The notes beneath the pieces are model-generated. The model was not told the DNA's origin. It saw nothing but the letters and a program-made list of their open reading frames with translations, and did no database searches. From Hydrurus foetidus (lineage: Eukaryota): DNA of 32,549 nucleotides. The DNA is taken from assembly GCA_900617105.1 (NCBI GenBank), contig UYFQ01000567.1, positions 1 through 32,549 of the forward strand. Reading direction: 5' to 3'. The position numbers and the translations under genes were made by a program. Below, in pieces: positions 2,856-32,054 of this stretch (its first letter is position 1; every line of letters starts with the position of its first letter).

Positions 2856-3416
2856 TGTCTTCGTCTTCGCTACGATAATGGTCGGTAGTTTATTGAAGGG
2901 ACCGCGACGGAACTCGGACGCGGTGAATTCAGGGAGAGGAAGGATAGGTTGAACTTTTGTGAAGACTGGTAGGTGTAGAGTGGAGTAGTAGAAAAAGGAG
3001 GATTGGAATGGTTTGGTCAATTTCGGGAGGAAATTGACGAGAATTTCGGGAGGAAATTTCTCGGCGAGGCCTGCGGAGCGAGCAATCCCACGAACGGAGC
3101 GTTGCTAATGGGTCCTTAAGTAGCGCTTTCGATGCTGAAAGCTACTACTGGCGTGTCGGCTTTCGTGTGACGAAAGTTTTCGATGGGATTTCTTGATATC
3201 GCGAGAAATCGCTGAGATCGAGCTTCGTTAGGACGAAGAGATAGAGGCTGTCGCTTTGCGAATCAACTCTCTATATAGTCGAATAGACGTTTCTGTTACA
3301 GAAAGCTATTGACACTCTCTTTTCGCTTCGAAAATGAGTCGGGTAGCGGTGTGGGAAATCTTGATTTGGCAATCGGCTTTCGTCTTGAAAGGCTAGCTGA
3401 TTCCAAGTAAGCTTAC

Positions 3417-3640
3417 TGTGGTCTCACTGAGGCCTTGGCTGGAACGGGAAACCGGACGGCGGAGGGCAAAGGTGAAATGGCTGGGGAACGATGCTAAAAG
3501 ATAGCAATGTGATTAGCTTACAGATAAGCACAGCAGATATCACGCAACAAATCGTATGGATCGGATCGTCCTCGATCCGAACCGTGCGTACGTTTGTACC
3601 CGAACCCGGTATACCCGGTATACTCGGTGTACGGGTCACA
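3417..3640 (-). repeat. 5' LTR of Gypsy A (~224 bp, TGTGACC...GAGACCACA)
   Basis: TG...CA termini; shares CTGTAAG, TTTCCCGTTCCA and AGACCACA motifs with the LTR of B. The second LTR is outside the window. Confidence 0.75.
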
Positions 3641-4760
3641 GTGCTTGATGGTAACCTTGAGTGAGATCAAGTACAGCAAACACTTTTGCTTGATGTGCAC
3701 CTATTCTACGCAACATCTCACCGATGTGTGGAATAGGATGGTTTATTTTCGGTACAATTGTTGAGATTCCGAAAATCAATACACATGCGCTTAGTTCCAT
3801 CAGATTTAGGAACTAGTAAAACTTGGCTATAATAAGCCGCGTTTGATTTTTTAACAATGTTATGTTTTTCAAGTTTGTTAATCTGACTAAGAATGTCAGC
3901 TTGATCAACTGTTGATTTAGCCCATGGAGGTTGTCTATTTTTAGTGACTTTCCATTGGTCGTCATTGACATTAAAGTCAAAGGGTGGAATATCAGCAGGA
4001 GTGGCCGAAAGTTCACTGCTAAATACATCCTTGAATTCGTGTACTAGTAACCGAAGTTTATTTTTCTGATCTTCATTACCTGCTAAGTTTATTAGCGAGA
4101 GTAGGTCAGTATCAGGAAATTCATCTATCCAAGGTGAAAACGAGTCCTTGATCGAGTCGTCGATTTCGTCCTCATCAGGGGGCACAGCCTCAAAAAGTCT
4201 TTCAGACTCTTGTATTAGTGAAGCTAGAATAACATGTGTTTGGGTTACTGCCGGTTTCACCTTTTGGGTTAAAGGATCGACCTTTGGGGAGCCATCAGAG
4301 GGTTGCAACTTCTCCTTAGGCTGACAGCCACACGTTATATCCACTTGCTCAGAAGATAAAACTTCCGCTAATGAGGATGTGCTTGATGAAGCATTGGCAG
4401 ATATCTGATCGGGGAAACGTGAAAATAAATTCAATTCGCGAATTGTTTTTCGTCCCACTATTAGATCAAATTTCGAATCGTTTAAAACATAAGCCGTGAT
4501 TTGAAAAGTATAATAATTATTTAAATCAAGGCAAAAATAAGAAAGAGTTAAGTCTATAGTGTCAGAAATATCATAACAATGATTATCTAATCCACTACAA
4601 ACTTTACACAATTTCTTTGAAGAGTTAGAAACGAATTGTGTGAAATTATGATTAGTTATAATGCGGCGATGTATAAAGTTGCCAGCAAAAGAGCCGGTGT
4701 CCAGGAGAGTAAAGACTCTATTACTTTTTTCCAGCATAACCTCCTGTGAGAGGGAGATAC
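3641..4760 (-). CDS. pol: Pol of Gypsy B: aspartic protease plus N-terminal RT (truncated by insertion, frameshift near 3745)
   Basis: LLDTGSFAGNFI, VCSGLD, DLIVGR, RMCIDFRNLN and DLTQGYHQ motifs. Confidence 0.9.
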
Positions 4761-6233
4761 GAAGAAAGGAATAAGTTCTGGATCATCGGAAAGAATAGAT
4801 GATGAATTTAGGTTGCATAGTTGCTCACCTTTGTGTTTCTTCGCAGCGTTTGTCGAGTCTGCTGTTGAAGTAGCAGGTTTTGACGAAGAGGAAGACGAAG
4901 AGGAAGACGATGAAGAAGAGGTCGATGTCTTAGGTAAAGTTGGAATAAACTTAGCCTTTGAATCGACTTTCAACAACTGCTTATGACCCTCAGAGTTGAT
5001 ATAGGGTGCGTCTGTACTGTTATAGTACGGTGACGTAGTGTAGAAACACGTGGCGACGAAATGACCAAGTCTCCCACAACCTGTGCAGAGAGGTCTTTCG
5101 AATTTGTCAGACTTGTCTGACTGCACTGATTGTTCGCTCTCTCGTGGACGTTTTTTGATTTTGTCCTGAGAGGAACGAGCAGGAGCTTTGATTTGGCGAG
5201 AGTTATCACCATACAAAGGAGAGACATCAATGAACCGTAAGGCATCAATTGATTCTCGTAGCTTAGCAAGCTGCGCAAGCCATACGAATCGAAAGTCTTC
5301 GATTGTAATGAGTCTTGGCGTTGTATTGTTAAGACTTCGCTGTAACACTGCTCTCCAATTGATAGGTTCGACTTGCAACTTATCGATGAGAATTTTAGTA
5401 GCCTGAAGTTGGAGAGTGGGTGTTGCATCAGGGAATCCATCAACAATATCAGCTAAAAGCTGATCTGTCTTGTCTTCCACTGATTCATCCTTCAGGTCGA
5501 ATTGAAGTGCGACCTGAGAGACAGTTTCAATGAAACTCAGCTTGTCAGTTCGATTGACAGCTGATGTAGGAACTGTGAGATTTAGTTCTCTACAGAACAA
5601 TTGATTCGACCAATGTTTCCAATTGTTACAGGAGTCGCGACGATCGGGATCAGTTGCAAACTTACGCTTGAGAAGCGTTGTAAACGATTGATGGTTGGAA
5701 ACATGGACTACATCAACTGGTTTAAATGGAGTTCCATTTGAAAGGAGGACTTCCATTACCCGTAGTACTTCCTGACGAGAGGGCACGGCGCTCAACTTAG
5801 GAGCTCTCTCACCCGTCTGTACATATTGCTGGGGTGGTGACATCGTCCTTGGAATAGGATTCTCAGCAATAGCTGGTGTCGCGTTTGAATCTGGTATCGC
5901 AGCCGAAGCTGGTATCGCAGCCGAAGCTGGTATCGCAGCCGAAGCTGGTGTCGCAGCCGAAGCTGGTTGCAATGACAAAGCAGATAACGCCGAAATGACA
6001 GGAATATCAATGACAGACATGACCGCAGGCTCCGAATTCCGCTGAAGAATCGGTGCAGACAGGTCGCCGGCGGGGTCCTGAGCCGCAGGTGGCCCAGGAG
6101 ACTCTGCGTCTCCACTACGATTGTGATGGTCGTCATAACGTTGTCGGAACGCGACGGCTACAGCACGAGGTTGCTGCTTTCGCCGAAGGGCGTTGATGGA
6201 GGATGTCTTTTTGTCTTGGCGGCGTAGAGCCAT
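4656..6233 (-). CDS. gag: Gag of Gypsy B (predicted spliced form ends at TAA 4723-4721)
   Basis: 525-aa ORF, low-complexity N-terminus, CCHC knuckle, Ser-rich tail, directly upstream of pol. Confidence 0.8.
   Translation of the reverse strand: MALRRQDKKTSSINALRRKQQPRAVAVAFRQRYDDHHNRSGDAESPGPPAAQDPAGDLSAPILQRNSEPAVMSVIDIPVISALSALSLQPASAATPASAAIPASAAIPASAAIPDSNATPAIAENPIPRTMSPPQQYVQTGERAPKLSAVPSRQEVLRVMEVLLSNGTPFKPVDVVHVSNHQSFTTLLKRKFATDPDRRDSCNNWKHWSNQLFCRELNLTVPTSAVNRTDKLSFIETVSQVALQFDLKDESVEDKTDQLLADIVDGFPDATPTLQLQATKILIDKLQVEPINWRAVLQRSLNNTTPRLITIEDFRFVWLAQLAKLRESIDALRFIDVSPLYGDNSRQIKAPARSSQDKIKKRPRESEQSVQSDKSDKFERPLCTGCGRLGHFVATCFYTTSPYYNSTDAPYINSEGHKQLLKVDSKAKFIPTLPKTSTSSSSSSSSSSSSSKPATSTADSTNAAKKHKGEQLCNLNSSSILSDDPELIPFFVSPSHRRLCWKKVIESLLSWTPALLLATLYIAAL
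5891..5967. repeat. 18-bp minisatellite (~4 copies, ctggtatcgcagccgaag) in gag B, encoding PASAAT/PASAAI repeats
   Basis: Directly visible tandem array. Confidence 0.95.
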
Positions 6234-6337
6234 AATTTTGACGTGATGGTTTAAGTTGGAGGAGTCGAAGACAAAAAGTTGGAAAAGAGAAAGACCTTTC
6301 TCGGAGGAAGCTTCGGTAATTGACCGAATATCGATAT

Positions 6338-6598
6338 TGTGGTCTGACGGCGGGGCCTAGGACGGAAGGCGAAGTTGGAACGGGAAAAGGACGGAAGGCG
6401 TGGACAAGCGGACGTGGAGTCAAGGTGATAAAGACTTGTGTTAATATCTTACAGTTAAATAGATGAAGGTGATGTGTACGCTAAGAGCACTCACGTCATA
6501 TATGGAACTAAGACCTAAACTGGAATCTGGGCGTCATATACCTATTGTACCTAGTAAACCTAGACACATTGTATCCATAGGGATGCAATAAGGCTACA
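6338..6598 (-). repeat. 5' LTR of Gypsy B (~261 bp, TGTAGCC...CAGACCACA)
   Basis: TG...CA termini; begins where the MULE-like reading frame loses coherence; 3' half similar to LTR A. Confidence 0.75.
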
Positions 6599-7029
6599 CC
6601 AGTAAGTCCACGATGGGCTTCTGGGGTGAGAACCGTAAGATCGGTATGATCGTGAACTCCATGGAAATACGAGATGTATTGTCCAATGGAGGAATCCATC
6701 TCGTATCTTCGCATAAAAGAGCAGCCAGTAAATTTGCATTTAAACTTAAACTGCAAGTCTACTGAGCTGACTTTTGAATAGTCCGATATTGCTGCATCAT
6801 GCACTACATCACCAAGAGACTGGTAAAGTATAAACCCAGTCTTATCCTCCACTAAATGTTCCTCCCATTTGAGAGCTTTCCCACGACCTTTCTTCTTTAC
6901 AGAGTTAGAAGGATCATTAATAACCTCCTCTGTAGAGATGTCAACATCAGATCCTGAATCAGTTGATGCTGGACTGTCTGGAATATGAATCCCAAAAGAT
7001 GTTTCGACGCCGAATACAGTGTTGGACAT
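6599..7029 (-). pseudogene. 5' fragment of a probable MULE/Mutator-type transposase (WRKY/FLYWCH-like zinc finger), interrupted by Gypsy B
   Basis: FKCKFTGC...HGVHDH (C-x4-C...H-x-H) followed by HRGLT; the C-terminal ~30 aa of the listed ORF are LTR B sequence. Confidence 0.55.
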
Positions 7030-7596
7030 AGTGAGGGTTGAAGGAATGAGGGTTGCAACGAAGTAATCTTTTCTAAGGAAATTTGAATAGATTACTCAGA
7101 TTCTGAAGATAACTTCCCAAGAAAAATTTGAGAACTACTGGAGATTTGAAGTGACTTACCGAGTATTGTTGCACAGTTGCAAGATTCTGGTGCTGCTTGA
7201 AGTAGATATACAGATTTTTTCACAAAAAAAGTCAACTTAAAATCAGTTTTTTTGGCAGAAAATTTCTACTGAATTTTTTTGGCGCGATTTCAGTTGTAAA
7301 AAATAATCCGATTCACTAGAATCTGTTATTCCGTCAATATATTCCGGGGTGCGTGCTCCAGATTAAAAAAGTCAAAGCACAATGGGTCCGTTTGGTAAAT
7401 TCGACGAAAAAAACGGCGTTTTTTCGAAATCACGATTAGGACTTCGGATCGAGATCTGAAAAATCGTGTTTTTTTCGATTTTCGAAAAACCCGTTTTACC
7501 AAACGGCCCTTTTTTTTGATGACCACCAGTTGCGAAAACTGAAATCCCACCTTTAACCTCATACGTGTTCATGCACAACACATAATAGAGTAAACG

Positions 7597-8766
7597 ATGT
7601 TCAATCCTGATGATGGTCTATTAAACCTTGAATTGCTGGTTGCTGTTGTTTTGGCAGCTGAGAATATTGACGGTGTGCATCCAGTCATCCAACACGACTC
7701 CGAGCTCACTGGTGCGAAGTACTTTAGTGAGCTCATGCGCACCGAAAATGTGAACCGATTTCATCAAGTTGCCAGAATGGATAAAGATACATTTAGTCTT
7801 CTACTTAATTTACTCATAGATGTTGGCGGATTGGTTAATTCGATGTACATAAGTGTGGGAGAGAAAGTCATGATATTAATTTATGTGCTAAGGGGGCATA
7901 CAAATCGTGAGACATGCGAGCGATGGCAACACAGCGGAGAAACAATATCGAAAATAGTTCATGAAGTAAGCGACGCCTTACTGGGATGTGGTTATGTTAT
8001 ATACAAACCAGCACAAGTTGGTGATCCAACACCGTCGCATATTTCCAATAGTGCTAAGTTTTCACCATATTTCAACGATTGTATTGGTGCTTTAGATGGG
8101 TCTCATATTCCTGCAATAATCCCCTTGGAGGATCAAGGCAGATACTTTAATCGGAAAAAATTTTTATCGCAGAATGTACTAGGTGTTGCAAATTTTGACT
8201 TATCGTTTGCATACGCTTTATATGGATGGGAAGGAACAGCTCATGATAGCAGAGTATTGGATGATGCCAAAAACAAAGGTCTACCACTTATACCTGGAAA
8301 GTACTACCTGGGTGATGCGGGGTACGGACTTAGTACCACCGTACTTACCCCCTATAGGGGTGTACGTTACCATTTACAGGAATTTGAAATCAACGGAAAT
8401 GGACCTGTCAACAGTAAGGAATTATTCAACTTAAGACATTCCTCATTACGCAATGTTGTAGAACGTATCTTCGGAATAGTAAAAGCTAGGTTTCCAGTAC
8501 TAAAAAAAATGAGCCCGTATGAGTTCGAATTTCAATGCGATATTGTGCAATGCTGTTTTTTACTGCATAATTTTGTTCACCTCAATCAAACATATGAAGA
8601 TCAATTCTATGATGAAGCTGGTAATTTTGTTGATAATGATATCGATGAAGACGTAGTTTATGAACCAGTAGAGGACGGTGTATACAATGCATTGAAGATA
8701 TGGCGCAATGGTATCGCGGAGGAGATGTGGGCTGATTATCTCGCATATATGGCACTAAATACCTAG
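7597..8766 (+). CDS. Harbinger transposase (DDE_Tnp_4, HARBI1-like)
   Basis: Motifs CIGALDGSHIP, GWEGTAHDSRV, YYLGDAGY and FNLRHSSLRNVVERIFG; intact 389-aa ORF. Confidence 0.95.
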   Translation: MFNPDDGLLNLELLVAVVLAAENIDGVHPVIQHDSELTGAKYFSELMRTENVNRFHQVARMDKDTFSLLLNLLIDVGGLVNSMYISVGEKVMILIYVLRGHTNRETCERWQHSGETISKIVHEVSDALLGCGYVIYKPAQVGDPTPSHISNSAKFSPYFNDCIGALDGSHIPAIIPLEDQGRYFNRKKFLSQNVLGVANFDLSFAYALYGWEGTAHDSRVLDDAKNKGLPLIPGKYYLGDAGYGLSTTVLTPYRGVRYHLQEFEINGNGPVNSKELFNLRHSSLRNVVERIFGIVKARFPVLKKMSPYEFEFQCDIVQCCFLLHNFVHLNQTYEDQFYDEAGNFVDNDIDEDVVYEPVEDGVYNALKIWRNGIAEEMWADYLAYMALNT

Positions 8767-9060
8767 GGAAAGGAACAATAAAATCTTTTTTTTTCGATAT
8801 ATCGAATTTAACATTAATCCTATTGATTTTTTGAGGTCATATCCTGACAGTTTTTTCGATTTATCTCATCAACCAGTGCTCTGATCGGGATTCTGAGCGT
8901 ATTTCCTGATCATAGTTAATTCTATTCATTATTCCAGTGGGGGGCTAAACTGATACCGGGGCAAAACTGATACCGCTCTGTACTATACTCCGCACAATCA
9001 ACTGACATACCAACCCTCACAACAACCAATTAGGACATCGCCGGCGTCGATCAGAACACC

Positions 9061-9549
9061 ATGGATGCAACAGTGCCAGTAGACGAAGATGCCTACAACC
9101 ACTGGATTGAATTTTCGGGCGGTTTGCCAACGCTTCAGCAGAAAAAATGGATAACAAGTAGAGTCTTGAACAAAATCGAGAGCGCGGCGGACATTGCAAA
9201 AAGATACAACATCCAAAGAAAGTATATCAATATCCTTGTTCAGAGGATGCGTAAAAGATCCTATCTCAGAATGCTGCCGGGCAGACCGCGAGTTCTTGAT
9301 GCTGAAAGCCAACAGAAAATTGAAACTTCCATCGTAGATATGACGTGCGAAAATGACGATCACCTTACCTCGGCAATCAAAGAGGAATTCCTTGCAACCC
9401 GCCTGAGATTGGGCAAAGTTGATGCAGCTGACGATAGTACTGACGTTGTTGATCCTGTTAAGATTTCGAGGAGATCACTAAAGCGCTATCTTATCCGCTT
9501 TCATCCTGGAGTATTTCAAACATTTGACGCGCACTCTGCTGTTGTCTGA
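9061..9549 (+). CDS. Stand-alone HTH protein homologous to the N-terminal DNA-binding region of the element's transposase
   Basis: QKKWI...IAKRYNIQRKYINILVQR...GRPRVLD...KISRRSLKRYL aligns by eye with EKVWL...LSGRYGISRKILNLWVNR...GRPKLFD...PISRRSIARYI. Confidence 0.8.
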   Translation: MDATVPVDEDAYNHWIEFSGGLPTLQQKKWITSRVLNKIESAADIAKRYNIQRKYINILVQRMRKRSYLRMLPGRPRVLDAESQQKIETSIVDMTCENDDHLTSAIKEEFLATRLRLGKVDAADDSTDVVDPVKISRRSLKRYLIRFHPGVFQTFDAHSAVV

Positions 9550-9606
9550 AGATGAAGCTCAAACTGTTCATATTGATTCTGAATTATCCGTTTATTTACA
9601 AATAGA

Positions 9607-11381
9607 TTAAATATCTTCTACTGCTACTACTCCTACATTTTTTGCTCTTTTGTTCGGCTTGGGGTTCTGCTTCTTTAACTCTGCATCTGCTTTGCGCTTG
9701 ACAGCTTTGGCAACCTTCTCTGTCTCGAGTGCTTCTTTCGCCAGCTTCTTGTCGTCCTCACTAGCGATAAATGCGCAGTTAGTTAGGAATACAAATCTTC
9801 GACGGTTGAGGACGAGATCATCAATGCATCTACCATTTGCCCTGGACATGTTGTCCATATCTAAGCGTTCCATGTCCTTCATAGACAACTCCCCATTGGT
9901 CTTCATCTGATTGCAAAGGAATGGCATGTGCTCCCAAACTCTCGTGATCTCATCAGTAGTGAAAGCAGTTTTGCACTGACCCAAAATTTTCTCAACATCG
10001 CATCCCCCGCCCTTTCTGTCGAACTGGCCGCACGTACTGAATGAGTCGGTAATTGTGTCTGATCTTAAAGTTGACTGAATTATATGTTTCACTACCTGCA
10101 GTCCCTCTGCTATTGCTTTCACATGCGCCGCAGACATTTTCTTCCCAACGAAAGTTTCATGCAGCTTGATGAAGTTTTTGTGACGCTCGGTAGATTTGGA
10201 AATCAGTATATCCTTGATATTCTTAAGTCCCTTTTTTTTGTTTTGGATGCCATAAAACATGTCCCAACATCGCACGGCTGGTAGATTGAGGTTGTAGAGG
10301 CAGGCAACTTCCCAATGACGATATTGTGTTCTAAGCACATGTTGGCAACCTCAGTGGTTCTCAGCGGCTTGATCTGAACATCCTCCCCATCAAGTGTAAA
10401 ATAAGCTGGTGTCGTCAGAGGTATTTGATTTAGTATCCTTATGTCAGTGACAAACTTGATGAAGACACTTGAGAACCACCATCTATAGAACTCCTGGTTG
10501 ACGCTTCGAGTTTTAGAAAATACTACCCAACCAGTCGACAGTATATCAGTCCCGATTCCCAGACCGGATACCTCATGGTAGTCTATTGTCCCCTCCACCA
10601 TGTTGTCGTCAGCAATTATGTAAACAGGAGGAGCAGAGACACCCATAGCAGTGATACACATATAGAACTTGATGAAAAATGCTGTCAAGGTAGACCCTTT
10701 CACTGCCATGACTTTCAACGGTCCTTTCTTCTCAACCCTCTCTAGTGGGTCATAGAGAACCTGAACCTTGTCTGTTAGGCCACCCGAAGTTTGATATGAA
10801 GTCCCATCGGCATTGATCGCTAGATCAGGAACCGTCAAAGGCATCATCAAGAAGTGCGCCACAGCGACGGTAACAGCATTGAGCTTATCCGAAGTAGCGA
10901 GAGCTCTTGCGTCGGTGGTCTGCTCCGCATTACCGACTTTGAGACCGATGGCATCAATGTAACGTGCTATGGACCTCCGTGAGATAGGCTTGACCGATGA
11001 TCCAGCAACAGCTTTTGTTTTGACGACTGCTTTCACGTGCTCTGACTGTAAATTGCGAACGAAATCTGATTTTACTGTGTTGTGAATATTGCCCGAAACA
11101 GACGATCTCAGTTCTGCTTTCGCGGGAGAATCAAATAATTTTGGTCTGCCAGCATCGTGCACCTTTCCATTCTTTGAGAATCTGTTAACCCAAAGATTCA
11201 ATATTTTCCTGGAAATGCCATAGCGTCCAGAGAGTTCTGGTGAAGATACTCCATGATAGAAGATCTCATGAATAAGCCAAACTTTCTCAGCTGTCGAGAT
11301 TGAATTCGATTTTAATTTTGGTGTCCGTCTCCCCCAAGGACTAGGGAGCCTCTCGGGAGTCGATGGCGGAGAAGTTGACAT
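9607..11381 (-). CDS. pogo-like (DDE_1-type) transposase, ~591 aa, one frameshift at the A8 run near 10232-10239
   Basis: N-terminal HTH plus GRPK; catalytic motifs INADGT, TLDGE and LPASTTSIYQPCDVG (39 residues between the 2nd and 3rd Asp); ORFs 10203-11381 and 9607-10338 overlap. Confidence 0.85.
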
Positions 11382-11605
11382 TTCACCGCGATGTCCTAAT
11401 TGGTTGTTGTGAGGGTTGGTATGTCAGTTGATTGTGCGGAGTATAGTACAGAGCGGTATCAGTTTTGCCCCGGTATCAGTTTAGCCCCCCACTGGTATTC
11501 CCGACTTAGACGAATTGACTCCGTGTGGAAGAAAAAAAACCAGATTCGGTCCAAGGTTTTTTTTAAAAATTACGACCCCTCAAAATTTTATCCGGGCCTC
11601 CGTAC

Positions 11606-12585
11606 TTATTTGCCCTCTAGGGCATCTAACTTACTCTTTATGAACAGAGTTTGCTGCGCATCAGTGAATGATAAGAACTGATTGACATATGAGGAATTGT
11701 CTGCTAACAAGCCTATGAAGTCCATCTCTTTTTGCATGTCTAACAGTTCAGAGTGCTTATCTTTTAAAATACTAACAGCCTTATCGAATGGAGATAGCCT
11801 ATTCTGGTAAGTATCCTGATTTGACACTATCTTTGAGAGCAATTCATGAACTAAACTGACAGGCTTGGATTTTACCACTCTTACAAACGGTCGCACTGTC
11901 TTCAGCTCTTTTGCAACTCTGTCGACATTGCTTACTTGGGTTACTTCCACCTCACTGATGTCATCTTCATCCACCGGCACCCTTTTCCTGTGGCTTGATG
12001 CTGAATCAAGCGAAGGCGCTTCCAAATCCACCACGGCTGGAGAAAGGAAATCCACAGAGACGCTTGGAGCAGATTGACGAGGGGTCATAGGAGCCCTAGC
12101 AAATCGACCAGTTGCTGAATCCGCTGTGTATTAGGGAAGTACAAATATTAGCATATAAAACGAGTATTAATGTGTATTTAAGATTACTTACGTCCAAATA
12201 ATGCCGTTAATTCGTTAAAAAACATCAATGGTCCATCGGCAAACTCAGCAGCTTTTGGATGGCTAGCATAATACTCGTTTAATGCTTCTGGGGCACCAGT
12301 GACCATACCACTTGCATCCATCCCAAAACCACTTTGGTTTGCATACTTTGTGAACTCAAGGTATTTCTTCTTCAAAGAAAAACATTGAGTTTTAAGCATC
12401 TCTTTGTTATACTCTAAACCTGTCCTGATTTTGAACTCGTCAGCTATGATCTGCCAAGCAGTCTTGTCGTTAGACAAGTTTGCAAATCTGCCGGCAGAAT
12501 GCTTCGTCAGTAGGTCGATCAGAACTTTGCGGTTCATGTTCGACCACTTCGCCACGTCCTTTTTCTTGAAGGACGTCGACATCAT
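11606..12585 (-). CDS. Harbinger Myb/SANT-like DNA-binding protein; exons 12585-12192 and 12123-11606
   Basis: Trp-spaced Myb/SANT-like region (KWSNMNRKVLIDLL...AWQIIADEF...LKKKY); GTAAGT...CTAAT...CAG intron 12191-12124 joins the two ORFs in frame (LFGP-DSATGRFA). Confidence 0.9.
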
Positions 12586-12842
12586 TATGCTATATTGTGT
12601 AGTATGTAGTGCATAAACGATGGTTGCTACGACAGTTACCTCGATATTTTTGAACCAGGATGATCGGGTCCCAGACGATTCGAGGGGAAAGCTCTTTCTC
12701 GTGGAATCGCGATTTCTCGAAAAAAAATCGGTTTCAGAAATTTACCAAACACCGGATTTGAAAAAATTGAGAAATTTCAAAAAAACGGGGGGAAATCTCG
12801 TGGGATCGCGATTTTTCGGTTTACCAAACGCACCCAATAGCT

Positions 12843-13035
12843 CAAGGGTCGTGTTTAATGCATTTGTCGTTTTCAATCGGGTACCAGCCCCGCACACAAC
12901 AACACACAGCATTTTTCATGCTGGGCGGTCCCCCTGGGGAATGTTTTATTTTTCAGTCATGAAAAATGCTGTGTGTTGTTGTGTGGGGGGCTGGTACCCG
13001 ATTAAAAACGACAAATGCATTAAACACGACCCTTG
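12843..13035. mobile_element. 193-bp foldback MITE with ~78-bp TIRs
   Basis: 12843-12920 is the reverse complement of 12958-13035 with about 2 mismatches; AGCT on both flanks. Confidence 0.85.
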
Positions 13036-13152
13036 AGCTCCCACGCAGGTTCTGTCTCGATGATACTATATCTACTACATATTCATATTCATATTCATAA
13101 TCTCTTCATTCATATCCTCTGCTCAACTTTGTGAGGCACGAGAGTCTACACA

Positions 13153-14380
13153 ATGGCACTACGGATTTCGGAAGCCGTTCTCTCTGGAGTAAGCACATGG
13201 AGGGATTTTGAACTCCATAAAATCAAAGAAACTCTAGAGCATAATAACCACCAACGTGAAATTAATCTTATGAAGAAGCACCACGCAACGGAAGAAAATT
13301 TATCGAAAAGAATATATCTAGTCGAGAAGTATACTGAAATAGAGCAGCATTTTCAACAGTTGAATGCCGATCTCCTGACCGTCAGCAAAGAAAGCGGTTA
13401 GACAATATATGTCACAACTACTCTGTATTAACTGAACTTCGTCATTTTGATGAGAATTTTCATCCCGAAAACTTCACAGAACGCGACATGTTCGATCAGA
13501 GAAATCAGCAATTTTCGACCATCCTAGTTGCTACCACGATTGTTCTTTCTGGCAAGTCCTGTGATGTATTCGACCAGAACATATTCTCAACCCGTCGCAT
13601 GATGACTAATTCCTTGTCGTCACTCTCTCAGGTCTCATAACAGTCCTTATCCAAGGGGTTCTGCCAAATGGAACAAGTGAATTCCTTCAGATCGTGTATG
13701 CAATATCAAACAGCGGGTCTATGGCATTACTATTCATTTGCTCAGTTCTGTGTTTAGAAGTCATTTGGAGGGCAAGTCAATTTATGTACAAACGATCGAA
13801 GGTGCACACTTGCGATCTCGGAAATGCGATCAAAAAAACGAAGCAAATGATGACCAAAGTGCGTGGGATCAAAGCGTACGAGATGGCAAGCATTGACCGT
13901 CCCAGTTCTCGAAGACACATATCAGGAATGAGCGATGCGGAAATACTCGACGAGTTCGCTCAGCATGAAAGTGAGATTCAGCGCTACCTGCAGCAGCGAC
14001 AAAAAATTATTGATAAGGCAGCCTACATGGTTTTCTCGGAGGATGGTACCAGCATCGATAAGGAATCATTCTCACATTTTTGGCGCGATTCTTGTGGGTA
14101 TTACAGCAATGCAGCAATTCTATTTTTCTATGGTGGGAGTGCTCTACTATTCGTTGCTACAATGACCTATATGTGGGCAAGATTCGACTATGCTCTACTG
14201 AGCCCCATTGCAGCCAAAGTCTCAGTCTACCTCATATCCTTCGCCTTATTGGCTTCTCTAATCCTGGTAGTATATCTGAGATACTACGACAGGCAATACC
14301 TGAAGAGCAAAACGAAATTTGAGAGCGACAACAGAAAAGCAGAATTACTCCTGAATTTGGCTGAAAGGGACATGAAATGA
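13153..14380 (+). CDS. Host multi-pass (about 4 TM) membrane protein; exons 13153-13396, 13480-13551, 13632-14380
   Basis: Phase-consistent introns (GT-AG 13397-13479; GC-AG 13552-13631) give a continuous frame with a coiled N-terminus and four hydrophobic helices. Confidence 0.8.
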
Positions 14381-14446
14381 AAGGGCAGTGGCATGATGGG
14401 AGTTTAAAGTGAAAAGCAATTCTGTCCGAAAGATTGAAACTTATGC

Positions 14447-14586
14447 TGCGATCTCAGAACCATTATTAAAAAACGAAGCACATGACGATCAAAGTATGCG
14501 GTATCAAAGCATATCAAATGGTCAGTTTTGACCATCCCAGATCATGAAGACACACAGGAGAACGAGTTCGCGAAGCATGAAGGTGA
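14447..14586 (+). pseudogene. Degenerate partial duplicate of 13811-13974 (internal part of the upstream gene)
   Basis: Collinear shared words tgcgatctc, aaaaaacgaagca, caaagt, atcaaagc, tgacc.tcccag, gaagacaca, cgagttcgc, agcatgaa; contains indels and stops. Confidence 0.75.
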
Positions 14587-17566: not shown

Positions 17567-18183
17567 GATCAGATCAAGTATTATGGTGAATCGCTGCCTG
17601 ATCTACAGGACAGAGAGAAAATTCTTTAACCACTCCTTAGTTTCAAAAGCCTCGTGAGTAGTTTCGTGCGAATATTTGACACACATTTTGGTGTTGCCAT
17701 CAACGAAATGAAACCATGTTACACAGAAGAGCTGTGTTAAGTGTCCTTGCCTACATCCCTGCCACAATTACCACCCACTCATCAATGCCTCTACAGCTTT
17801 CACATATACATCACATCCCAAAACCTCCTAATCTTGACTGTCGATTATATCTCTATCCAAGAGACCCCGAATGTCCTAACGTTTATTGAACTACAGACTA
17901 CGGAGGTCCGCTATTTTAACTCCGCGAAGAACGGAGCACACTGCACGAAGATTATTATTTTTGCTTCTTTTATTTCTGTGTAAAGTTGTTGACTTAAAGT
18001 AAGCTCTCAGATGATCTTTATATGATGCATCTGAATAGAAAACTGTACATCGACATTTTTAAATTATATACTTACTGTAGCATAAACTAATTGAAAGTAG
18101 TCCATTAAATTTTTCTATCGCAAGACAACTGATGCCACATGGTAGTAGCGAACTATTTAGACGCTCATATTCGCGAATTTGAG

Positions 18184-18939
18184 TTACCTAAAAAAGCGGC
18201 TACTCCTCAGTAAATCAAGATCCCTGGGCAGTAAAACCTGCCCACCTCTGAGTGACATTTTATGGAGTAAGTCTCTGTCAGAAACCTTGAATATTTCCAA
18301 CTGAAGAACACAACGGCTGCCGCTCTCCGGGAAATCATTCGATTTTTCTTTTATAGAGATAAATAACGCCCTCAGTTTAGATTTCTGAAATTCCTGGGCA
18401 TAGGAATAAATTGTTATAGAGTCATCTCCCAATCCATTTGATTTCCAATCCCAGTTCTCATTGCTCGGATTCGGAGCTGTTGCTGAGAGGTATAGATCAC
18501 AATCGATTTTGGATAAAGTGAATGGATTCGACTCAAAAGAATTCTGATGAGTTTTAATCCTGAAGCCATGCTGATGATCATGTTGAGCTATGCACAGTTG
18601 CCAGCTAGGACGTGATCTGTATTGATGATTATCATTGACAAACATCGTTATATTTTCTGATATCACCAATGGATTTGTGATGGTCTCTATGTTGACGGAG
18701 TTGAACCTATCTATGCACAAGTTCGAATTCTGGGATCCCTCCTCAACGACGTAAAGATCATGACAGTCATTGGGGTACAGAATTGAAGAGGTGTCAGGTT
18801 TTTCAGCTATCGAGTAAGAAGACTTCAAGAAATACGTGAGGTAATCAGTGACTGAGAGAAGTATCAGTACTGCGACAAATGAAAGCACCCACGCTCTTAC
18901 TCTAGGCGGGTTTTCATCTCGGCGCCTTCTACCACTCAT
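18184..18939 (-). CDS. Signal-anchored protein with a PPC/UPF0669 (C6orf120)-like motif
   Basis: 251-aa single-exon ORF; N-terminal hydrophobic helix; DCDLYLSATAPNPSNENWDWKSNGLGDDSITI resembles the DxDLYxS...P.....S...G.D.I pattern. Confidence 0.6.
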   Translation of the reverse strand: MSGRRRRDENPPRVRAWVLSFVAVLILLSVTDYLTYFLKSSYSIAEKPDTSSILYPNDCHDLYVVEEGSQNSNLCIDRFNSVNIETITNPLVISENITMFVNDNHQYRSRPSWQLCIAQHDHQHGFRIKTHQNSFESNPFTLSKIDCDLYLSATAPNPSNENWDWKSNGLGDDSITIYSYAQEFQKSKLRALFISIKEKSNDFPESGSRCVLQLEIFKVSDRDLLHKMSLRGGQVLLPRDLDLLRSSRFFR

Positions 18940-19112
18940 GAGATAGCAATTTCTTACGCTCTGCCATGAAACCTCGTCTTTGTAGGACCCGAAGTGGGTT
19001 TTGAATAGTCCAATCGAATCTCAATGACGTTGTGAATGTTTTCAGTCTGTGAAGTGTGAAGTTCAGACTGTTGGAGTATCCGGAGAAAAGACACTGCTGT
19101 AGTTGTATACGG

Positions 19113-19526
<414 letters not shown>

Positions 19527-19598
19527 CACCCTCATGCTACAACACATTTGTTCGCAGTTTGATAATCAAGCATTTGTTGTCTACTAATACTTAATATT

Positions 19599-22500
19599 CT
19601 AAGCTAAGTCTTTGTCGGGCCACCCAGTGACTCCGTGTCTCTCCAATCTGAATTGTCCCCCCTGAAGCGGCTTCGTCAACATGTTAGCGTACATGTCCTT
19701 CGTCCCGAGGTGCACCACCCTTGCCTCTCCCATGTCCACCCACTCCTTCAGCCAAAAGTATCTGATGGAAATATGTCTTGTGCGCTCCGCCGCTGACCGC
19801 CCGCGGTCTATGAGAGCCATGCATGACATGTTGTCTTGATAGATCGTAACCGGCGCGCACGCGTGTCCTTGCCCTATGATGAAATTTCTCACGTGTAAAG
19901 CTTGGTTAGATGAGTCGGACAGTGCGACCAGCTCTGCCTCCGTGCTTGACTTCGTCACGATCTGCTGCTTCACGGACTTGCAATGTACTGCACCCCTTTC
20001 TCCCACCACAACGCAGCTCCCAGTGTGTGATCTCCCATCGGGATGTACCCCGAACGCAGCATCGATCAGGACACTCACGGCTATTCCCTTCGCTCCCGGT
20101 GCGAGCACTATGCCTCGGTCTCTGGTCGCCCATACATATCTCATCAGACGGTCCAACTTGGTCAGGTCGTCCGTGGTGCACTTGGTCACTCTGGTGGCGA
20201 GGAAAGCTACTGCTGTCAGGCAGTCCGGTCTCGTTCTCTTCGCTAAGTATAGCATCTTCGCTACTCGGCGATGGAAGATCACTCTCTCTTCCTCGCTCGC
20301 GTTTTCGATGTCCGGCCTCACATCGAATAGTCCCTCGGTCGCGGGAGTCTGCGCACCCTTGGCTGTCCCCGCCTCCTTCAGCATATCGTCCACGTAACCT
20401 GTCATTGAAACTTTGGCTACACCCTGCGAGGTTAAGTCAAACACCATCCCAAGGTAGTTCACTACAGGTCCGTCTTTCCTTGTTATATCTCCATACCTAA
20501 TGACCAGTCCCTCTGCAAGTGCTTCGATCATGTCTGCATCGGTGCTCGTGATCATCAAGTCGTCCACGTGGACAGCTATGGTGCATTGCACCCCGAGTGG
20601 GTTCCTTTTGTTGAACACGCATATGTCGATCGCATTGGGAGTGTACCCTAGACCGTGTAGACTCGCCTTCAGGTTCTCGTACCAGAGCGCCGCGGATTCC
20701 ACGCATCCGTATAGTGCCTTGTCTAGTCTCACTACGACGCACCCTCTGTCATTCATGTACCTCGAGTAGTGTGGTGCAAGCTTTGTCATCATCCCTGTCA
20801 TGTTCTTGTCTAAACGCATATGCACGGCAAGCCCGGCGTTCATGTCCGCGTTGAGGTATGCACCGCTGATGTCTATGACCGTCACCCTACGACCCTCGTG
20901 TGCCGCGATGCATAACAGAGTGAATACTGAGCTGGTCCCCACTGTCGGAGCGGACAAGTCATCGTAGAGTGTCTTGTCTTGTTGGTCTCCGCCCGCGACG
21001 AGCCTCGCCTTGAGTTTCTCGAATTCACCGCTGGCTAGGAATTTCTCTTTGAGGAACATGCTCGATCGGATGATGCGCGCCTTCTCCTCTCTCGGGAGTC
21101 TCTGTTTGTCCACTGGCGTCCATACTTTCTTTTTGATCATTTGCCCGAGCTCTTTGAGTATCACGCTCTCGGCTTCTTTCCCTCTCGTGCGCAGTGCCTC
21201 ATTCACTGAGATGTTCAACACGTATTCCTTCCAGTCGCCACCTACGGAGTTATAGTTACGAGTGAGTAGCGCAGCTCCATGTTTGTCGCCTCTAAACATG
21301 TCCATCAGTTTCTGTCTGGGCAACACTAGATGTCCTACGCTGGAGTATCTCTCTGCCGCCTCGGTTGCCTCCTCCATAATTCCGAGGTCTATCGCTCCGT
21401 TCTCTCCGTAGTCCTCAGGCACTCCCTGTTCATCACCGTATTCCACTCGCACTGCATCTGGACTCCCTACTTCAAGTTGTCTGAAGCTGCTCAGCAGATC
21501 GTCCATGTCAACCACCCTAGGCTCTATCCTTACTCTTGGTGTCGGTATCATATCGTCCGCGTAGTTCGACTCCTCACTGTAAGGTTCCTCCTCGTGCGCA
21601 TCGAGCGCGATATTCATCTCTTGGTCTGCTTCAACGTATATGAGCTCTTGCTCGTGACTCTCATCCATGAGCGACACCGCTGGATCTACCCCGTTGTTAA
21701 CCTCAGTCTGAATTGTCTCAGGTAGACCGTTTCTCATCTCACCGTCTTGCTCGAACCTAACAATGCGTTTCTCTAACTCACCCTTTCCTTTGACCCTACC
21801 ATCTGCTAGTTCAAGCTCATTTAGTTTCTTGTAACGGACTCTGGCATGGGCATAATAATGAATTGGTCCCTGTTCACTACCTTCCCGGTCGCTAAAGACA
21901 GCATTCGTACGGTCCCCGTACAGTTCCCTAATGGCAATATTACTACGCAGTCCTCGGTTCGCAGTTTTAGAGTCGCGTCGGTGTTCGGCACTGTACATTG
22001 AACATAGTCGCCGAATGAATAGCGGAATTCTCTTTTGCCGTCTGGTTTCCTCCCTATGAAGGCCTCCCTCGGGCTAGGGCCCCATTCCCGTTCTCCGTAC
22101 GGTTCGTAGTTCACCCTAGAAACTACGTACATTACGCACATAGCAATACCCACACTCGATAATGTGAAAGGCAGAATGTATACATGTGAACGTAACCTTT
22201 CTTTGATAACTCGAATCCTTCGTTCGATTCTAGCGACGTGGCCGCCCGCTCCACTGACATCGACATCTACTCCGAGCTTCCCTAGTTCGTCGACCAGAGT
22301 GATCACAGCTCCCTCTCCATCGCTCATGATCACCGAGGTCTTAAATCCTTGGGATCCTAGCACTCCTAGAAAATGGGCTATTCCTTTCCTCACGTGCTCT
22401 GCTGACCTGGTCGACTTCTTGAGCACTAGGTTGTTTAGACTATATGCTATAGTTAGTCCTAGAGGAGTCGCTAGGCCGATTAGAATAGCAATTTTGTCAA

Positions 22501-24421
22501 TAAACATAATGTCGATTGCCAGCACCTGATCCTTTTGGACTATTTTCGCTTTCACCGATATGTCGGCCGTAGGAGTAGCATGTTTCGTGGTCTTCCCTTT
22601 GATGGAGGCAATGTCCTTCCTCCAAATGGCTTCTGCGATCTCAAAATCTCTCGCCGAGATATCAAAGTTGCTCCCGGAGTTCACGATCGACATCGCTGTC
22701 CCGACGGTCGGGAATCCCATTCTGCCCATTAGCTCGCGCGCCGATCTCGCACGGTTGATTTCCCTCTTTGTCAATGCTTTCAGGTTCTGATTCACTGTGG
22801 TTACCATAGCTGTCTCTGCCTCGACGGTCCTCCAATCACAGGAGTAGAACCTCCCGCCGCTACCAGGTATAGTTTTACGACCGAACTTATACACGTTGCT
22901 GCTCCCCCTTGGTTGTAACGTGAAGACGTCTTCCTCGTGGTCATATCGAATGATTGCTCCTGCATCCACTTGTGTCGCAAAGGATAGGACGTTGGCTGAT
23001 GATTCTCCGCTGTAGAATACTGTTCCAAACTCTCCGAAATCTCCTTCGTTGTCGACTGTAACTCCCCCTCCAGCTTGAATGCCGCTGACTTTGATCGACT
23101 GCTCTGACTTGCGTATCCTAGAGAGCTGATTCTTGTTGCTGAAAATGTTTAATGAGGCTTCGTTGTCGAGAAGTACATCGTACTGTGTGAACATGCACCT
23201 TTCATTCAATGCAACAAGTGCAATCCCCCACTCGCCTTCTCCACTCTCATCGTCACTGTCAGGTTCAGCCTTCGATACGTGGACTTTCTCTCCTTTCGAC
23301 TTTCTGTTGGGACAGTTTCTCGCGTAGTGACCTTTTTCTTCGCAGGTGTAACACTCCACTTCGGTTAGTGGCTTCTTTCTGGTACCTCCGGTTTTCCCGG
23401 CTGCCTTCTCGGTGTCTTTCGACAAGGTGATGTGGACTTCTTCGGTAACGAGTGCGACCCCGGGTGTGTGAGGCGGGTCCTTGGGTGCTCCCCCATCTAT
23501 TCCCTGATAGCGTGAGGCTATGCTGTATGCCCTTGCGAGTGCGCTGGGGTAGGCGTCGGCCTTGTGTCTAGCGGCGTCGTTGTTCATGTCTTGAGTCATT
23601 TTACGGTATCGCTTAGGGTCAAGCTTCCCGAGGAAGTCTAGTGCACGTCGTGAGTCTGTGACTTTGTCGGCTCCGACTGCATCATTAGCTAGCACCTGTT
23701 CGTCGAATCGTGCTTTAAATGTATGTATGAGCTCTCTCTCACCTTGTCTCATCGCACCGTACTTACTCTCTTGTTCGTGCCTGTTCACTTCTTTCATCGG
23801 GTCTGAGTCACCATACATGTGGGTGAGGTGAGTTTTCCGAATGAGTGTCCACAGTAGTACACAGTTCAGTGTCATGTACGCTGTTCTGTACTCCTCCTCT
23901 TCTTTCACTCTGTTCTGTGAGCTCGGCGACATTCTCTTCCACATCATCGGGTAGACGGTACGTTCGCTCTCCTTCTGAGTTTTGAGGTCTCTTTGCCTCT
24001 GGATGTAATCCTCTTCTCGATATTTCGCTCGTGAGCGTTCTGCGGCATTTCGTCGCCTTTCGTTTCGAACCTCCCTCGCGGCGGCTCTTGCTGGTTTACC
24101 CGCGGTGTGCGCTAGGAGTGCCGCTGTCTCAGCAGCTGTAGGTGCAACTACGTGCTCTTGTTCTTCGTCTTCGTCAGCTGGAGCATCTGGCTCCGATTCT
24201 GACATCGAGTCTTCTGACGACGAGGCGTCTGGGTAGTGAAGGATTGTCCTTGGTAGTTCGTATCTCACATCTGTTGTGAAGAACATACCGACTATGCCGC
24301 ATAGTTCTGTGACTATAGTCTGCATACTCTCTCTCCACTTTATAGTGTTGTTGAATTTGCCATATTGAAGGATGCACTCCTCAGTGCTTTTCGAAGCTTC
24401 AACGGCGCGTTTGGGAGGCAT
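19599..24421 (-). CDS. Copia gag-pol polyprotein with one frameshift near 21830
   Basis: CYTCEEKGHYARNC; LLDNEAS; integrase DIMF/SDGEG/IERRIR; RT KARLVAGG, LDKALYG, VHVDDL; RNase H IDAAFG, STEAEL, YQDN, ANMLTKPL. Confidence 0.93.
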
Positions 24422-24446
24422 GACAATGCCAACGCCTGTCAAATTA

Positions 24447-24671
24447 TGTTGGAGAACCTCTTCGTTCCGAGCACCCTAGATCGGAACGTGGACCTGTGGT
24501 CTGGAGGTTCGATTACCAAGGCTTGTGAAATGAGACGCTTGTTGCCAATAATCACTCGTTAGTTTGACTGTGCTGAATCCCTGTCTACAGCCCCGAGTCC
24601 CTTTCAACGCAACAACAAATCAAACCTACACTACACTTGAAGTACGGTGTTCTGCTCAGGCCCATACATCT

Positions 24672-24712
<41 letters not shown>

Positions 24713-24784
24713 TAATCCGTACGTCCGTACGAATGCATAAGTACACATAATGTGTTCGTGTCATGAACTCAGATATATCCAATA
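24447..24784 (-). repeat. Copia 5' LTR (338 bp) containing (CA)18
   Basis: Matches the other LTR except for microsatellite length and about 2 substitutions, one in the terminal dinucleotide. Confidence 0.95.
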
Positions 24785-24786
24785 TA

Positions 24787-25148
24787 CGGGCTGGTAGCGC
24801 CAAGAAGCAGGAATTTTTTTCGTTTTGACACTTCTTTTTTTCTGTCGAACGGTTTCTCATTTGTGATTGCTCAAAAGAACCGAAATCATCTCTGCTACAC
24901 CCCCACGCTTTTCGCTTGTTTTCAAAATTCGTATTTCGTGAACTTTTACCCTTTTTACCCAAAATAGCATGACTTTTGAGCACTATGGTGCACAATAACA
25001 ATTTACCAGCGTATTTAAATGCCAAGCAAATTACACGGCCTTGTATGAACGATTTTTCGACATCTTTCCATCCGTTTAGTTTTTCCTGGAGTGTTCCAGA
25101 AAAAAACATGAAATAAGGAATTTTACGTTTCTTGGCGCTACCAGCCTG
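24787..25148. mobile_element. Tc1/mariner-type MITE (362 bp, TA flanks)
   Basis: TA-CGGGCTGGTAGCGCCAAGAA ... TTCTTGGCGCTACCAGCCTG-TA inverted termini; AT-rich non-coding interior. Confidence 0.85.
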
Positions 25149-25208
25149 TAGTATATGCATGGACCCCGACGGTCAGCGGTATGTGCCCTGGGGGTGCAGA
25201 TCGTGGAC

Positions 25209-27784
25209 TGTTAGATGTTTGGGCTCATAGAGCCATTCATTCATCTATCTCCAACTTGGATAGACCCATGTGCAATTGCGTTGATATGTAAAGCTTCGTT
25301 GCCGTCTTGATTGATGCCGGTGCACAATTTTAATTATCAAGTAATACACACTACAAGTCTACTTTTACGAGCCTTGGGTCACCAGTCGCACGAGTCACAA
25401 AGCATCCGGGCTTCGAGAAATCCCAACGTAATTAAACTAGATCAGCGCATCGAGATGCCGCCGAAGAAATAAGAAGAACCAAAGTTAGCTGTAGAGCAGT
25501 GCATGCTGAGAATCGGACGATACAACAACGTAGTGCAGTGGAGGGAAGACATGCAGAACGAGGCATGCGGCCTGTACGGTATGACAGGCACTTTCTTCAC
25601 CACCAACAAGAGTTACGTCCATCCGTATCCTCGAGAGGAGGATTACAATCCCACCTTTCAAACGGTGGAAATCGATACTGCGACAGCGGGTACCGAAAAT
25701 GAAGACGAGGACGACGACGAATCCGTGAACCTCGAGAATGTCATGATCGGGCCACAGCGCCCACCAGCGCCTCCTGTCGTGTACTCCGAGGAAAAACTAA
25801 GGAAAAACTTTAGGCGCAAAGGAAAAAGTCTCGGGGAAGGGAGCCAAGGGGAAGACTGCAGGAACGAAAAAGAAATCATCGTCAGTGATTTGTTTCGTTT
25901 GTGGAAACACAGGACATTTCGCCAGAGATTGCGAACAACGCAAGGATTCGGAGCATGCAATGCTCACCAATGTCGAGGAGGACATCGAAGAAGATGACGA
26001 GAGCATAGGAGCAGCATTCGTCACGACAGACGAGTTCGTCCTGTTCACTCGTAGTCATGTGCTGCTAGACAACCAGGCGTCTGTGAACATATTTTGCAAT
26101 CCGTCATTGCTGACAGACATTAGAAAATCGCAACATGCGATCCTTCTCAACGGAGTCCAGTCTGAGGCGAAGGGTGTCCGAGTCGACCACGAGGGAGACT
26201 TCGGAGACATCGGGCCTGTTTACTTCAGTCGGGGAGCGACAGCCAACACACTGTCATTCGCGGCGATGGCAGACAGCGGTGCGGACATCAGCTACGAGAG
26301 TGGGTGCTTCAACTTACGGCCCGCCGGCAGCAGGACAACGTACAACTTCAGCAGGCAGAGTCTGCCAGGCTCATCAGGAAGATTCTACGTGTGGGATGCG
26401 AGAAGCGCTGCAGGGCAGGCGCACCAGATGCCGGAGCAAGCACTGGTGACGGCCGTCGAAGACAACATGAGGCGCCTCACAAAGCGCGAGATTGCACAAG
26501 CAGCAGCAGCCAAGGAGCTGCTAGCACTTATGGGTTACCCTCCAGTCAAGATGGCGATCGCGATGATTAGGGGGGGTAACAACTTCAGCGTCTCAGAAGC
26601 AGATTTTCGAAACACTCATTCTATCTAGAGCAAATGTCTCGCCATTCTCTGAGGCAAAACTCACAAGAAATCGTCGCCTGTAGCCGACATTTCTCGGACA
26701 CCTGCACCAGCGCAGCAGCAGCAAGTCTTGAGTGTGGACATTATGTATCTGGAGGCCACAGCAATACTTATCGCCGTTTCAACCCCTCTAGATATGACCC
26801 TCGCCATGAGCCTCATGCGACTCAATACCGAGAAGACCTCTCGAGCTGCTGCAATTGTGAAGCCGGCACTGAATGAAATGATATCCATACTCAAATCCAG
26901 GAACTTCTTAGTGCAGGTCATCATGTCCGACGGCGAAGGTGCAATCGGCAAAATGAGGCTCGATTTGCTGGCACTGGGAATTGAGGTAGATGTCAGCGCA
27001 GCTGGCGGTCACGTCGCTAGGATTGAACGGCGGATTCAGATGGTGAAGGAGCGAGCACGCGCTCACATCAACGGTGGAATTCCATTCACTCCTACCGAAC
27101 TCTGTCTTACCTATCTAGCTCTATACTGCGTCGCCCGCATTAACTGTCAGCAGTCAGGATCAAGGCCCGGGGGTCTGTCGCCAAGGGAATTATTTTCAGG
27201 ACGGAGGGTTGACGGGAACCTGGACTTTCGTGCCGCATACGGGGATTACGCTGTTTGTACCGTACCTAACACGAATAACTCTATGCAATCCAGAACTGAA
27301 GATTGCATTGTCATGCTCCCTACACACAGCAGAACTGGATCGTTCAAGATGCTATCACTGGCTGCAGGCAAGATCGTGACAAGAGACCAATTCAAGATAC
27401 TGCCGATGACACAGTCAGTCATAATGACGCTGAATGCCATGGCAGTCAAAGAAGGGAAGAAAATAACTCAAACCCAACTTCATATGCTTGATGAACAACT
27501 ATTCGCAAAGAGTCTAGACAAATCTAAAATGCCATCCTTCATTACCAACCCCCCACTCAGGATGCCATTGTCGACCCGGTATCGGTGGATTACCAACCCA
27601 CACTCACCGACCTACCATCAGCTGACAGCATTTTCGAGATTCCTCCTTCCGATGTGGGGGGGGTGGATACCAGTCGCAGCCGAAGCCACACCACCATCAG
27701 GCGAAATCGAAATTGCGGCAGTCGAAATCGGAACTGCGGAACTCGAAACAATTGGGATGCACGAACGAGACCTACTCACACCAC
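25209..27784 (+). mobile_element. Degenerate Copia element related to the full-length one (probable 5' LTR 25209-25428, gag with internal deletion, protease, integrase), interrupted by Gypsy C
   Basis: MPPKK* start at 25455 homologous to MPPKR; CFVCGNTGHFARDC; LLDNQAS; DIMY/SDGEG/IERRIQ; in-frame stops at 25470 and 26626. Confidence 0.9.
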
Positions 27785-27992
27785 TGTGGCTCCCTCAGGG
27801 TCTGCTACCCCATTCAGCCGATTAGATGCTGTTTCCACCTTAGTACCTTCGTGTTCACAGCCACGACTATCAGTCACTAGCTAGTTTGTGCTGCTTTGCA
27901 GAAGTTACTAGCGTACCTTCTGCCTTCATCCCTAACTAACTAGCTCCTTTTAGCCTTTAGATTTCCCTTCTCTTTTGCCTTCCAAGGTCACA
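27785..27992 (+). repeat. 5' LTR of Gypsy C (~208 bp, TGTGGC...GGTCACA)
   Basis: Imperfect inverted TG...CA termini at the point where the Copia sequence stops; followed by a boundary palindrome as in A and B. Confidence 0.72.
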
Positions 27993-28085
27993 GTAGATCT
28001 ACTTCCTTTAGTTTCTCTTCTTTAGACCCTATCCTCTCCTACTCTAAGCTACCATCCTCTACACTACCCTGCTGCCCTAACTCAC

Positions 28086-32044: not shown

Positions 32045-32054
32045 CCAGACCGAC

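Follow-up and report, generated by a model that had tools for sequence, protein, structure and literature searches.

How long terminal repeat (LTR) elements without a tRNA site begin reverse transcription is an open question for GalEa, Skipper, Tcn2-5 and others, and the locus described here raises it as well. The window analysed, 32,549 nt of Hydrurus foetidus DNA (contig UYFQ01000567.1, positions 1-32,549, assembly GCA_900617105.1), contains three Gypsy-type elements, A, B and C, whose 5' LTRs are each followed by a 12-bp palindrome that opens on the last A of the LTR. From the comparison with related loci, we found that the palindrome at the LTR end is a well-supported feature of a whole clade, in which, judged from the sequences, it appears to replace the tRNA primer-binding site. 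By analogy with self-primed elements, we consider it somewhat better than an even chance that two element RNAs pair at the palindrome and that one of them, once cut, primes minus-strand DNA synthesis on the other.

The three palindromes reported in the initial annotation are perfect 12-mers and were recovered at their positions in a check of the window (Table 1). Palindromes of at least 12 nt are by themselves not rare in this DNA, where they occur at about twice the shuffle level (17 in the window vs 8.0 ± 2.6 in shuffles). The chance that a CA site opens a perfect 12-mer, measured on shuffled window DNA, is 3.2e-4. It is the position of the palindromes, not their presence, that is the non-chance feature, and the claim rests on location. 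For LTR A, the end was set by flank junctions, independently of the palindrome. Element A is inserted within the reverse transcriptase (RT) region of element B, whose RT reading extends up to 3641, and in public contigs over 2900-7000, which form a high-copy repeat, other copies diverge at 3641, just outside the LTR. At the inner end, contigs over 3375-3475 depart at 3415-3417 into heterogeneous flanks, mostly at 3417 (nine records at 3417, four at 3416 and four at 3415 among those listed), indicating that LTR A ends on the first base of palindrome A. More diverged copies retain palindrome A and leave 11-21 nt beyond it; variants inside it were absent from the lists of four runs, in which short contigs limit detection. 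The GACCACA end that LTR B has in common with LTR A, together with the relatives, suggests that LTR B ends at 6338, and both ends of LTR C (27785 and 27992) are suggested by motifs only. As the initial annotation had stated, TGG is absent directly after the LTR end in A, B and C, and ARAGORN and Rfam found nothing in the window.

The assignment of these elements to Gypsy is supported by their homologues. The protease of B is followed by the start of RT, and this piece matched 34 longer proteins, the full-length ones having RT, RNase H, integrase and, mostly, a chromodomain. The full-length homologues carry PF00078, PF17917 and PF00665, with the chromodomain PF00385 on most of them, and their domain order and RVT_1-type RT fit Ty3/Gypsy. 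The window copies stop before the integrase, none of the three elements has its complete RT within the window, and Pfam gave no match on those of their open reading frames (ORFs) that were scanned. Over gag, protease and the start of RT, B shares 55-69% identity with two gag-pol proteins of chromodomain Gypsy elements, P0001 and P0002. A search with the RT and RNase H of P0002 matched 804 proteins at E 1e-20 or better, almost all unnamed metagenomic proteins among the 120 listed, and the best PDB match was the Ty3 Gag-Pol (E 3.5e-75). A and C are linked to the clade by protease similarity only (A, 69-82% matches over short stretches to clade polyproteins such as P0128; C, 32-43% identity with E down to 1e-24). 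The LTRs in the window have the TG...CA form, and a purine tract and TGT follow pol in most of the relatives covering that region. Similarity thus places A, B and C in a chromodomain Ty3/Gypsy clade without a name, known mostly from metagenomes. The runs containing the DNA of the window elements are biofilm, freshwater, sediment and air metagenomes and one coded organism, which points to a microbial eukaryote as the probable host; none of the runs on record is an RNA data set, which has no bearing on expression.

Related loci, one from a viral collection and 79 from metagenomes, were fetched with an alignment of 32 proteins, the metagenome loci coming from the best 80 of 360 confirmed stretches. 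Many of these contigs are collapsed assemblies that read pol, LTR, leader, gag. We located 55 LTR-leader junctions in 54 loci, mostly through a search for palindromes anchored on CA or TA, with imperfect ones found by eye; palindromes elsewhere, whether in coding sequence, in leaders or, in L040, in a flank, were set aside. In a scan anchored on the purine tract and TGT, the palindrome lies 143-445 nt past the LTR start where both were found. Together with the three junctions of the window, a perfect, even-length palindrome of 10-16 nt stands at the LTR-terminal A in 54/61 junctions, and the other seven are near-perfect, five broken only at the outermost pair, one with a G-U pair and one with an internal mismatch. 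The family-wide palindrome that the initial annotation had proposed to look for is therefore present, and a hunt through the remaining 26 loci for relatives lacking it gave no counter-example: L026 and L051 have junctions with near-perfect palindromes, L039 has an inserted perfect one, and the rest start inside gag, end before the LTR end or run from the LTR into unrelated flank. At the LTR-to-flank junctions of seven loci of the same families (L013, L018, L023, L037, L050, L060 and L074), identity is lost at the CA in 4/7 and 1-2 bases later in 3/7, which fixes the boundary without use of the palindrome. These seven junctions, with those of LTR A, bear out the earlier statement that the palindrome opens at the LTR's last A.

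Statistics were drawn from 44 non-redundant junctions out of the first 58, with L026, L051 and the L039 insert left out. A [CT]A-anchored palindrome of at least 12 nt is present in 39/44 of these regions vs a shuffle mean of 1.5. There are 25 distinct palindrome sequences among the 44 junctions; their lengths are all even (10, 12, 14 or 16 nt) and their 5' edge is fixed. In a gap-free alignment of 36 12-mers, 99.1% of the cells pair, and 48 cells change on both sides vs 10.9 in shuffles (0/500). Changes on both sides occur at five of the six pairs, and both central pairs have all four pair types, so that the compensatory change and symmetric centre first noted in the window hold across the family. 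The RTs of the 54 carriers share identity down to 39% (median 49%) and fall together with P0002 in a quick tree with two outgroups and no named reference RTs; some contigs are nested, and the mapping of RTs to junctions in this tree may be wrong for some rows (L035). Symmetric double changes also separate near-identical elements (L002/L003, L036/L075 and L064/L071). L002 and L003, at an RT distance of about 0.004, differ at 7/132 positions, two of which form the symmetric centre.

We then compared the junctions with known priming modes. Conventional priming, whether by the 3' end of a tRNA, by a half-tRNA or, as in Tf1, by the 5' end of the RNA itself, could draw on three observations: TGG follows the palindrome in 6/44 junctions, a loose pattern complementary to an anticodon loop fits 14/44, and LTR matches to the element's own palindrome are slightly longer than in shuffles (5.7 vs 5.4 nt, p about 0.03). 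However, a tRNA-type TGG starting at +1 to +5 occurs in 0/44 junctions, and the loose half-tRNA pattern, applied purely as a pattern test, fails in 30/44. The idea that a tRNA site simply lies 11 nt further in does not hold in general either, on the same 6/44. In element A, where TGG stands directly 3' of the palindrome, it reads best as part of the outer stem described below. A Tf1-type LTR complement, sought as a primer-end match of at least 9 nt in the last 200 nt upstream, was absent from the 40 junctions tested (longest match 8 nt), and the three longer LTR matches to the palindrome are scattered. One fixed outside primer cannot explain 25 mutually covarying sequences, and we regard conventional priming as highly improbable. 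A Tf1-like pairing of a TGTAAG motif in LTRs A and B with their palindromes, suggested by folds, was discarded as well; the registers differ, and the motif recurs in L028, L036 and L075, whose palindromes are unrelated. A downstream partner of the kind known from GalEa was found in 0/44 junctions at one mismatch or fewer, 5-60 nt past the palindrome.

The predicted energies favour a duplex over a hairpin. The mean predicted dimer energy is -9.9 kcal/mol for the core and -17.9 kcal/mol with flanks, the corresponding hairpin means are 0.0 and -2.1 kcal/mol, and the dimer is predicted to be more favourable than two hairpins in 44/44 junctions. This agrees with the earlier remark that a hairpin would not need a symmetric centre; a centre that is always symmetric in a palindrome of even length points to the need of a duplex rather than of a loop. 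A fold-back in cis, in which the RNA is cut after the palindrome and the hairpin snaps back to prime on its own U5, can be drawn for these palindromes, with a bulge at the LTR junction as for GalEa (PMC5445492), and fold-back copying could symmetrise a loop over time. We nevertheless judge it clearly unlikely, because the core hairpin has no predicted stability, the -2.1 kcal/mol needs flanks that the cut would remove, and the stretch that would form the loop is symmetric and of even length in every case. The alternative named in the initial annotation, a binding site for a dimeric protein, could be a symmetric DNA or RNA target of integrase, Gag or a host factor. It is in keeping with the nearly constant outer four positions (AATA...TATT in most), which resemble half-sites, and with the integrase attachment CA that the palindrome abuts. 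It fits poorly with the centre, since half-sites would tolerate an asymmetric spacer, whereas the centre, though free in sequence, is self-complementary in 36/36 aligned 12-mers with four pair types, in palindromes of even length whose spacer would vary from 2 to 8. We give this alternative very little credence.

The self-complementarity tends to extend beyond the palindrome. Bases at the end of U5 tend to be complementary to those that follow the palindrome, with the terminal C or AC of the LTR left unpaired, and a version of this outer stem is predicted in all three window elements. Pairing is stronger between an element's own flanks than between swapped ones (z -5.2), and it is best in a register to which the LTR side contributes one more base (z 4.3, or 4.1 on a coarser set of 36).

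We propose that two packaged genomic RNAs would anneal antiparallel through the 10-16 nt core, the duplex often being lengthened by the short U5/leader stem with a bulge at the terminal C or AC of the LTR. By analogy with Tf1, whose primer is produced by RNase H cleavage of an RNA duplex (PMC7175516), the RNase H of the RT would then nick one of the two strands close to the palindrome's 3' end. Five junctions have a broken outermost pair, and the nick therefore probably falls at or before the second-last base of the palindrome. The resulting 3'-OH would be extended into the partner's U5 as the start of minus-strand DNA. Plus-strand strong-stop DNA would in turn copy the partner's palindrome, so that each half may be re-templated by the other in every cycle; such re-templating would explain the symmetric double changes between near-identical elements. 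The main rival is that the palindrome serves only as a dimerisation, packaging or RT-landing signal and that the primer is a protein or another small RNA. Palindromes and kissing loops mediate RNA dimerisation in retroviruses and Ty1, and the covariation and even lengths are equally compatible with any duplex. Yet dimerisation alone gives no reason for a 5' edge on the last base of the LTR in 61/61 junctions while the length varies, and the search for another primer site found none in the junctions tested. We hold this rival possible but unlikely. A 5' edge fixed at the LTR's last base with the length left free argues for a role in setting the cDNA end, that is, in priming.

Several points weigh against priming by the partner RNA. 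The anchoring, the covariation, the lack of a tRNA-type site and the duplex preference stand behind the dimer-primed reverse transcription suggested in the initial annotation, but we infer every mechanistic step, namely dimer formation, RNA cutting and the primer end. The covariation figures lean upward because most junctions were first found through the palindrome itself, and many LTR ends lack independent fixing. Cores made of A and T only are predicted to form modest duplexes (-4 to -7 kcal/mol), and in the longer R-U5-leader context the best predicted dimer uses the palindrome in A and C but not in B. The outer stem is weak and variable, with 58% of cells paired vs 51% when shuffled and 52% when slid by one column, and its statistics control relatedness only in part. 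Selection alone can also produce symmetric double changes, for instance by way of G-U intermediates like L051, and in MMTV palindromes in the primer site are dispensable for dimerisation (PMC8096270). The clade is a natural mutational series for these questions, with 25 palindromes, four lengths, broken outer pairs and a bulged outer stem. If partner-RNA priming is true, it makes the element independent of the host tRNA supply, couples priming to dimerisation and accounts for a class of elements in which annotation tools register no primer site.

Table 1 Features of elements A, B and C in the window, with the evidence for each.
Feature	Position	Strand	Evidence
gag and protease region of A, spread over several frames and running off the window	6-3104	-	ORFs
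Predicted extended self-pairing unit A: CCA, bulged C, palindrome, TGG	3403-3421	-	duplex prediction
Palindrome A, AGTAAGCTTACT, opening at the LTR's last A	3406-3417	-	
LTR A (5' LTR, 224 bp, TG...CA)	3417-3640	-	loose ends of other copies at 3641 and 3415-3417
gag, protease and RT start of B, interrupted by A	3641-6233	-	similarity to P0001 and P0002
Predicted extended self-pairing unit B: GACC, AC/C loop, palindrome, GGTC	6322-6344	-	duplex prediction
Palindrome B, AATATCGATATT	6327-6338	-	
LTR B (5' LTR, 261 bp)	6338-6598	-	outer end: contig depth drop and loose ends at 6599
LTR C (5' LTR, 208 bp), inside a Copia-like integrase region	27785-27992	+	motifs: TGTGG start, GTCACA end
Predicted extended self-pairing unit C: AAGG, TCAC/T loop, palindrome, CCTT	27984-28008	+	duplex prediction
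Palindrome C, AGTAGATCTACT	27992-28003	+	
gag and protease region of C, running off the window	28708-32549	+	ORFs

We also observed several other features of the LTRs and leaders. In two related subfamilies (L024, L025, L030, L031 and L077; L010, L014, L015 and L017), the LTR appears to end in TA instead of CA, and between L017 and L030 a single bulged base moves position through a paired change. The flanks past the 3' LTRs in the seven loci with LTR-to-flank junctions start with AT in 3/7 and with GA in 3/7, a possible target-site bias in a small sample. In 37/58 junctions, the 150 nt before the LTR end contain a TGTAA motif, mostly at 50-115 nt; in the window it stands at 3512-3521 and 6444-6454. 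UGUAA is a polyadenylation signal in some algae, and the motif in these LTRs possibly has that function. The leader of element C contains a tandem duplication of ~170 bp at 28086-28434.

Elsewhere in the window, a Copia-type element (RVT_2) occupies 19113-24787 on the minus strand, with a 5-bp target duplication, CCGTA. Both of its LTRs are present, with (CA)n tracts that differ in length, and the 5' LTR leads into TAATTTGAC, not TGG. The second Copia-like element, with a zinc knuckle and an integrase-like ORF, lies at about 25150-27785 on the plus strand and is interrupted by element C; next to its candidate LTR end stands TAATTAAAC, which resembles the site of the first. A Harbinger-type transposase (DDE_Tnp_4, 7594-8766, plus strand) and a Myb/SANT protein (12184-12741, minus strand) are apparently interrupted by a 2.6-kb element at 8931-11498, which has 111-nt terminal inverted repeats and a weak DDE_1 match. 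A 200-bp, near-perfect, MITE-like inverted repeat is located at 12839-13039.

The novelty of the arrangement was overstated at first, as a palindrome that is anchored at the LTR and replaces the primer site has already been published for the fungal Ty1/Copia group GalEa. Donnart et al. 2017 (PMC5445492) described there a Conserved Hairpin Site, a 10-nt palindrome that includes the last A of the 5' LTR and replaces the primer site; the authors raise the analogy with dimer initiation and leave the mechanism open. GalEa and the present clade are alike in having no tRNA site, a palindrome from the final A of the 5' LTR, compensatory variants (two in GalEa) and a predicted bulge at the LTR junction. 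They differ in that GalEa is Copia whereas this clade is, by domain order and RT type, chromodomain Gypsy, and in that the GalEa palindrome has 10 nt and two main sequences whereas here there are 10-16 nt, 25 sequences and a freely covarying centre. In addition, a second complementary 9-mer lies downstream in 39/44 listed GalEa families and is absent in five (PMC5445492), in contrast to 0/44 here. A comparison with the GalEa palindrome site has also been made for bivalve TRIMs (PMC6934838).

Among the chromodomain-type Gypsy elements, Tf1, Sushi and Tcn1 likewise lack a tRNA site and use a primer from their own RNA that is released by RNase H (PMC7175516, PMC6317226), a step that we borrowed for the model. 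In Tf1, however, the first 11 nt of the transcript fold back in cis on a non-palindromic site, and no such LTR complement is found here. The Skipper chromoviruses of dictyostelids (PMC5006619) are also chromodomain Gypsy without TGG or a Tf1-type complement, but their site is a polypyrimidine tract instead of a palindrome. Retroviral dimer-initiation sites and Ty1 palindromes similarly pair two genomic RNAs through self-complementarity in the 5' region (PMC8096270), but they accompany the tRNA primer site and are not tied to the last base of the LTR, whereas the palindrome here stands in its place. For Tcn2-5, novel priming was proposed by Goodwin and Poulter 2001, according to PMC7175516. The literature searched, a coverage that stops short of the Tcn2-5 description, Repbase and GyDB, yielded no Gypsy clade for which a primer site of palindromic form is described, and the string 'palindrom' is absent from the main text of Kojima 2024, Neumann 2019 and Novikova 2010. 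The anatomy is thus not new in kind; the novel aspects are the Gypsy setting, the extent of the covariation and the outer stem. A dimer partner nicked inside the palindrome may represent a fourth LTR priming mode besides whole tRNA, half tRNA and the Tf1 fold-back. In this mode dimerisation and priming would be one event and the symmetry would repair itself, and it would have more than one origin, with this Gypsy clade and GalEa Copia as separate cases, a proposal to which we give even odds.

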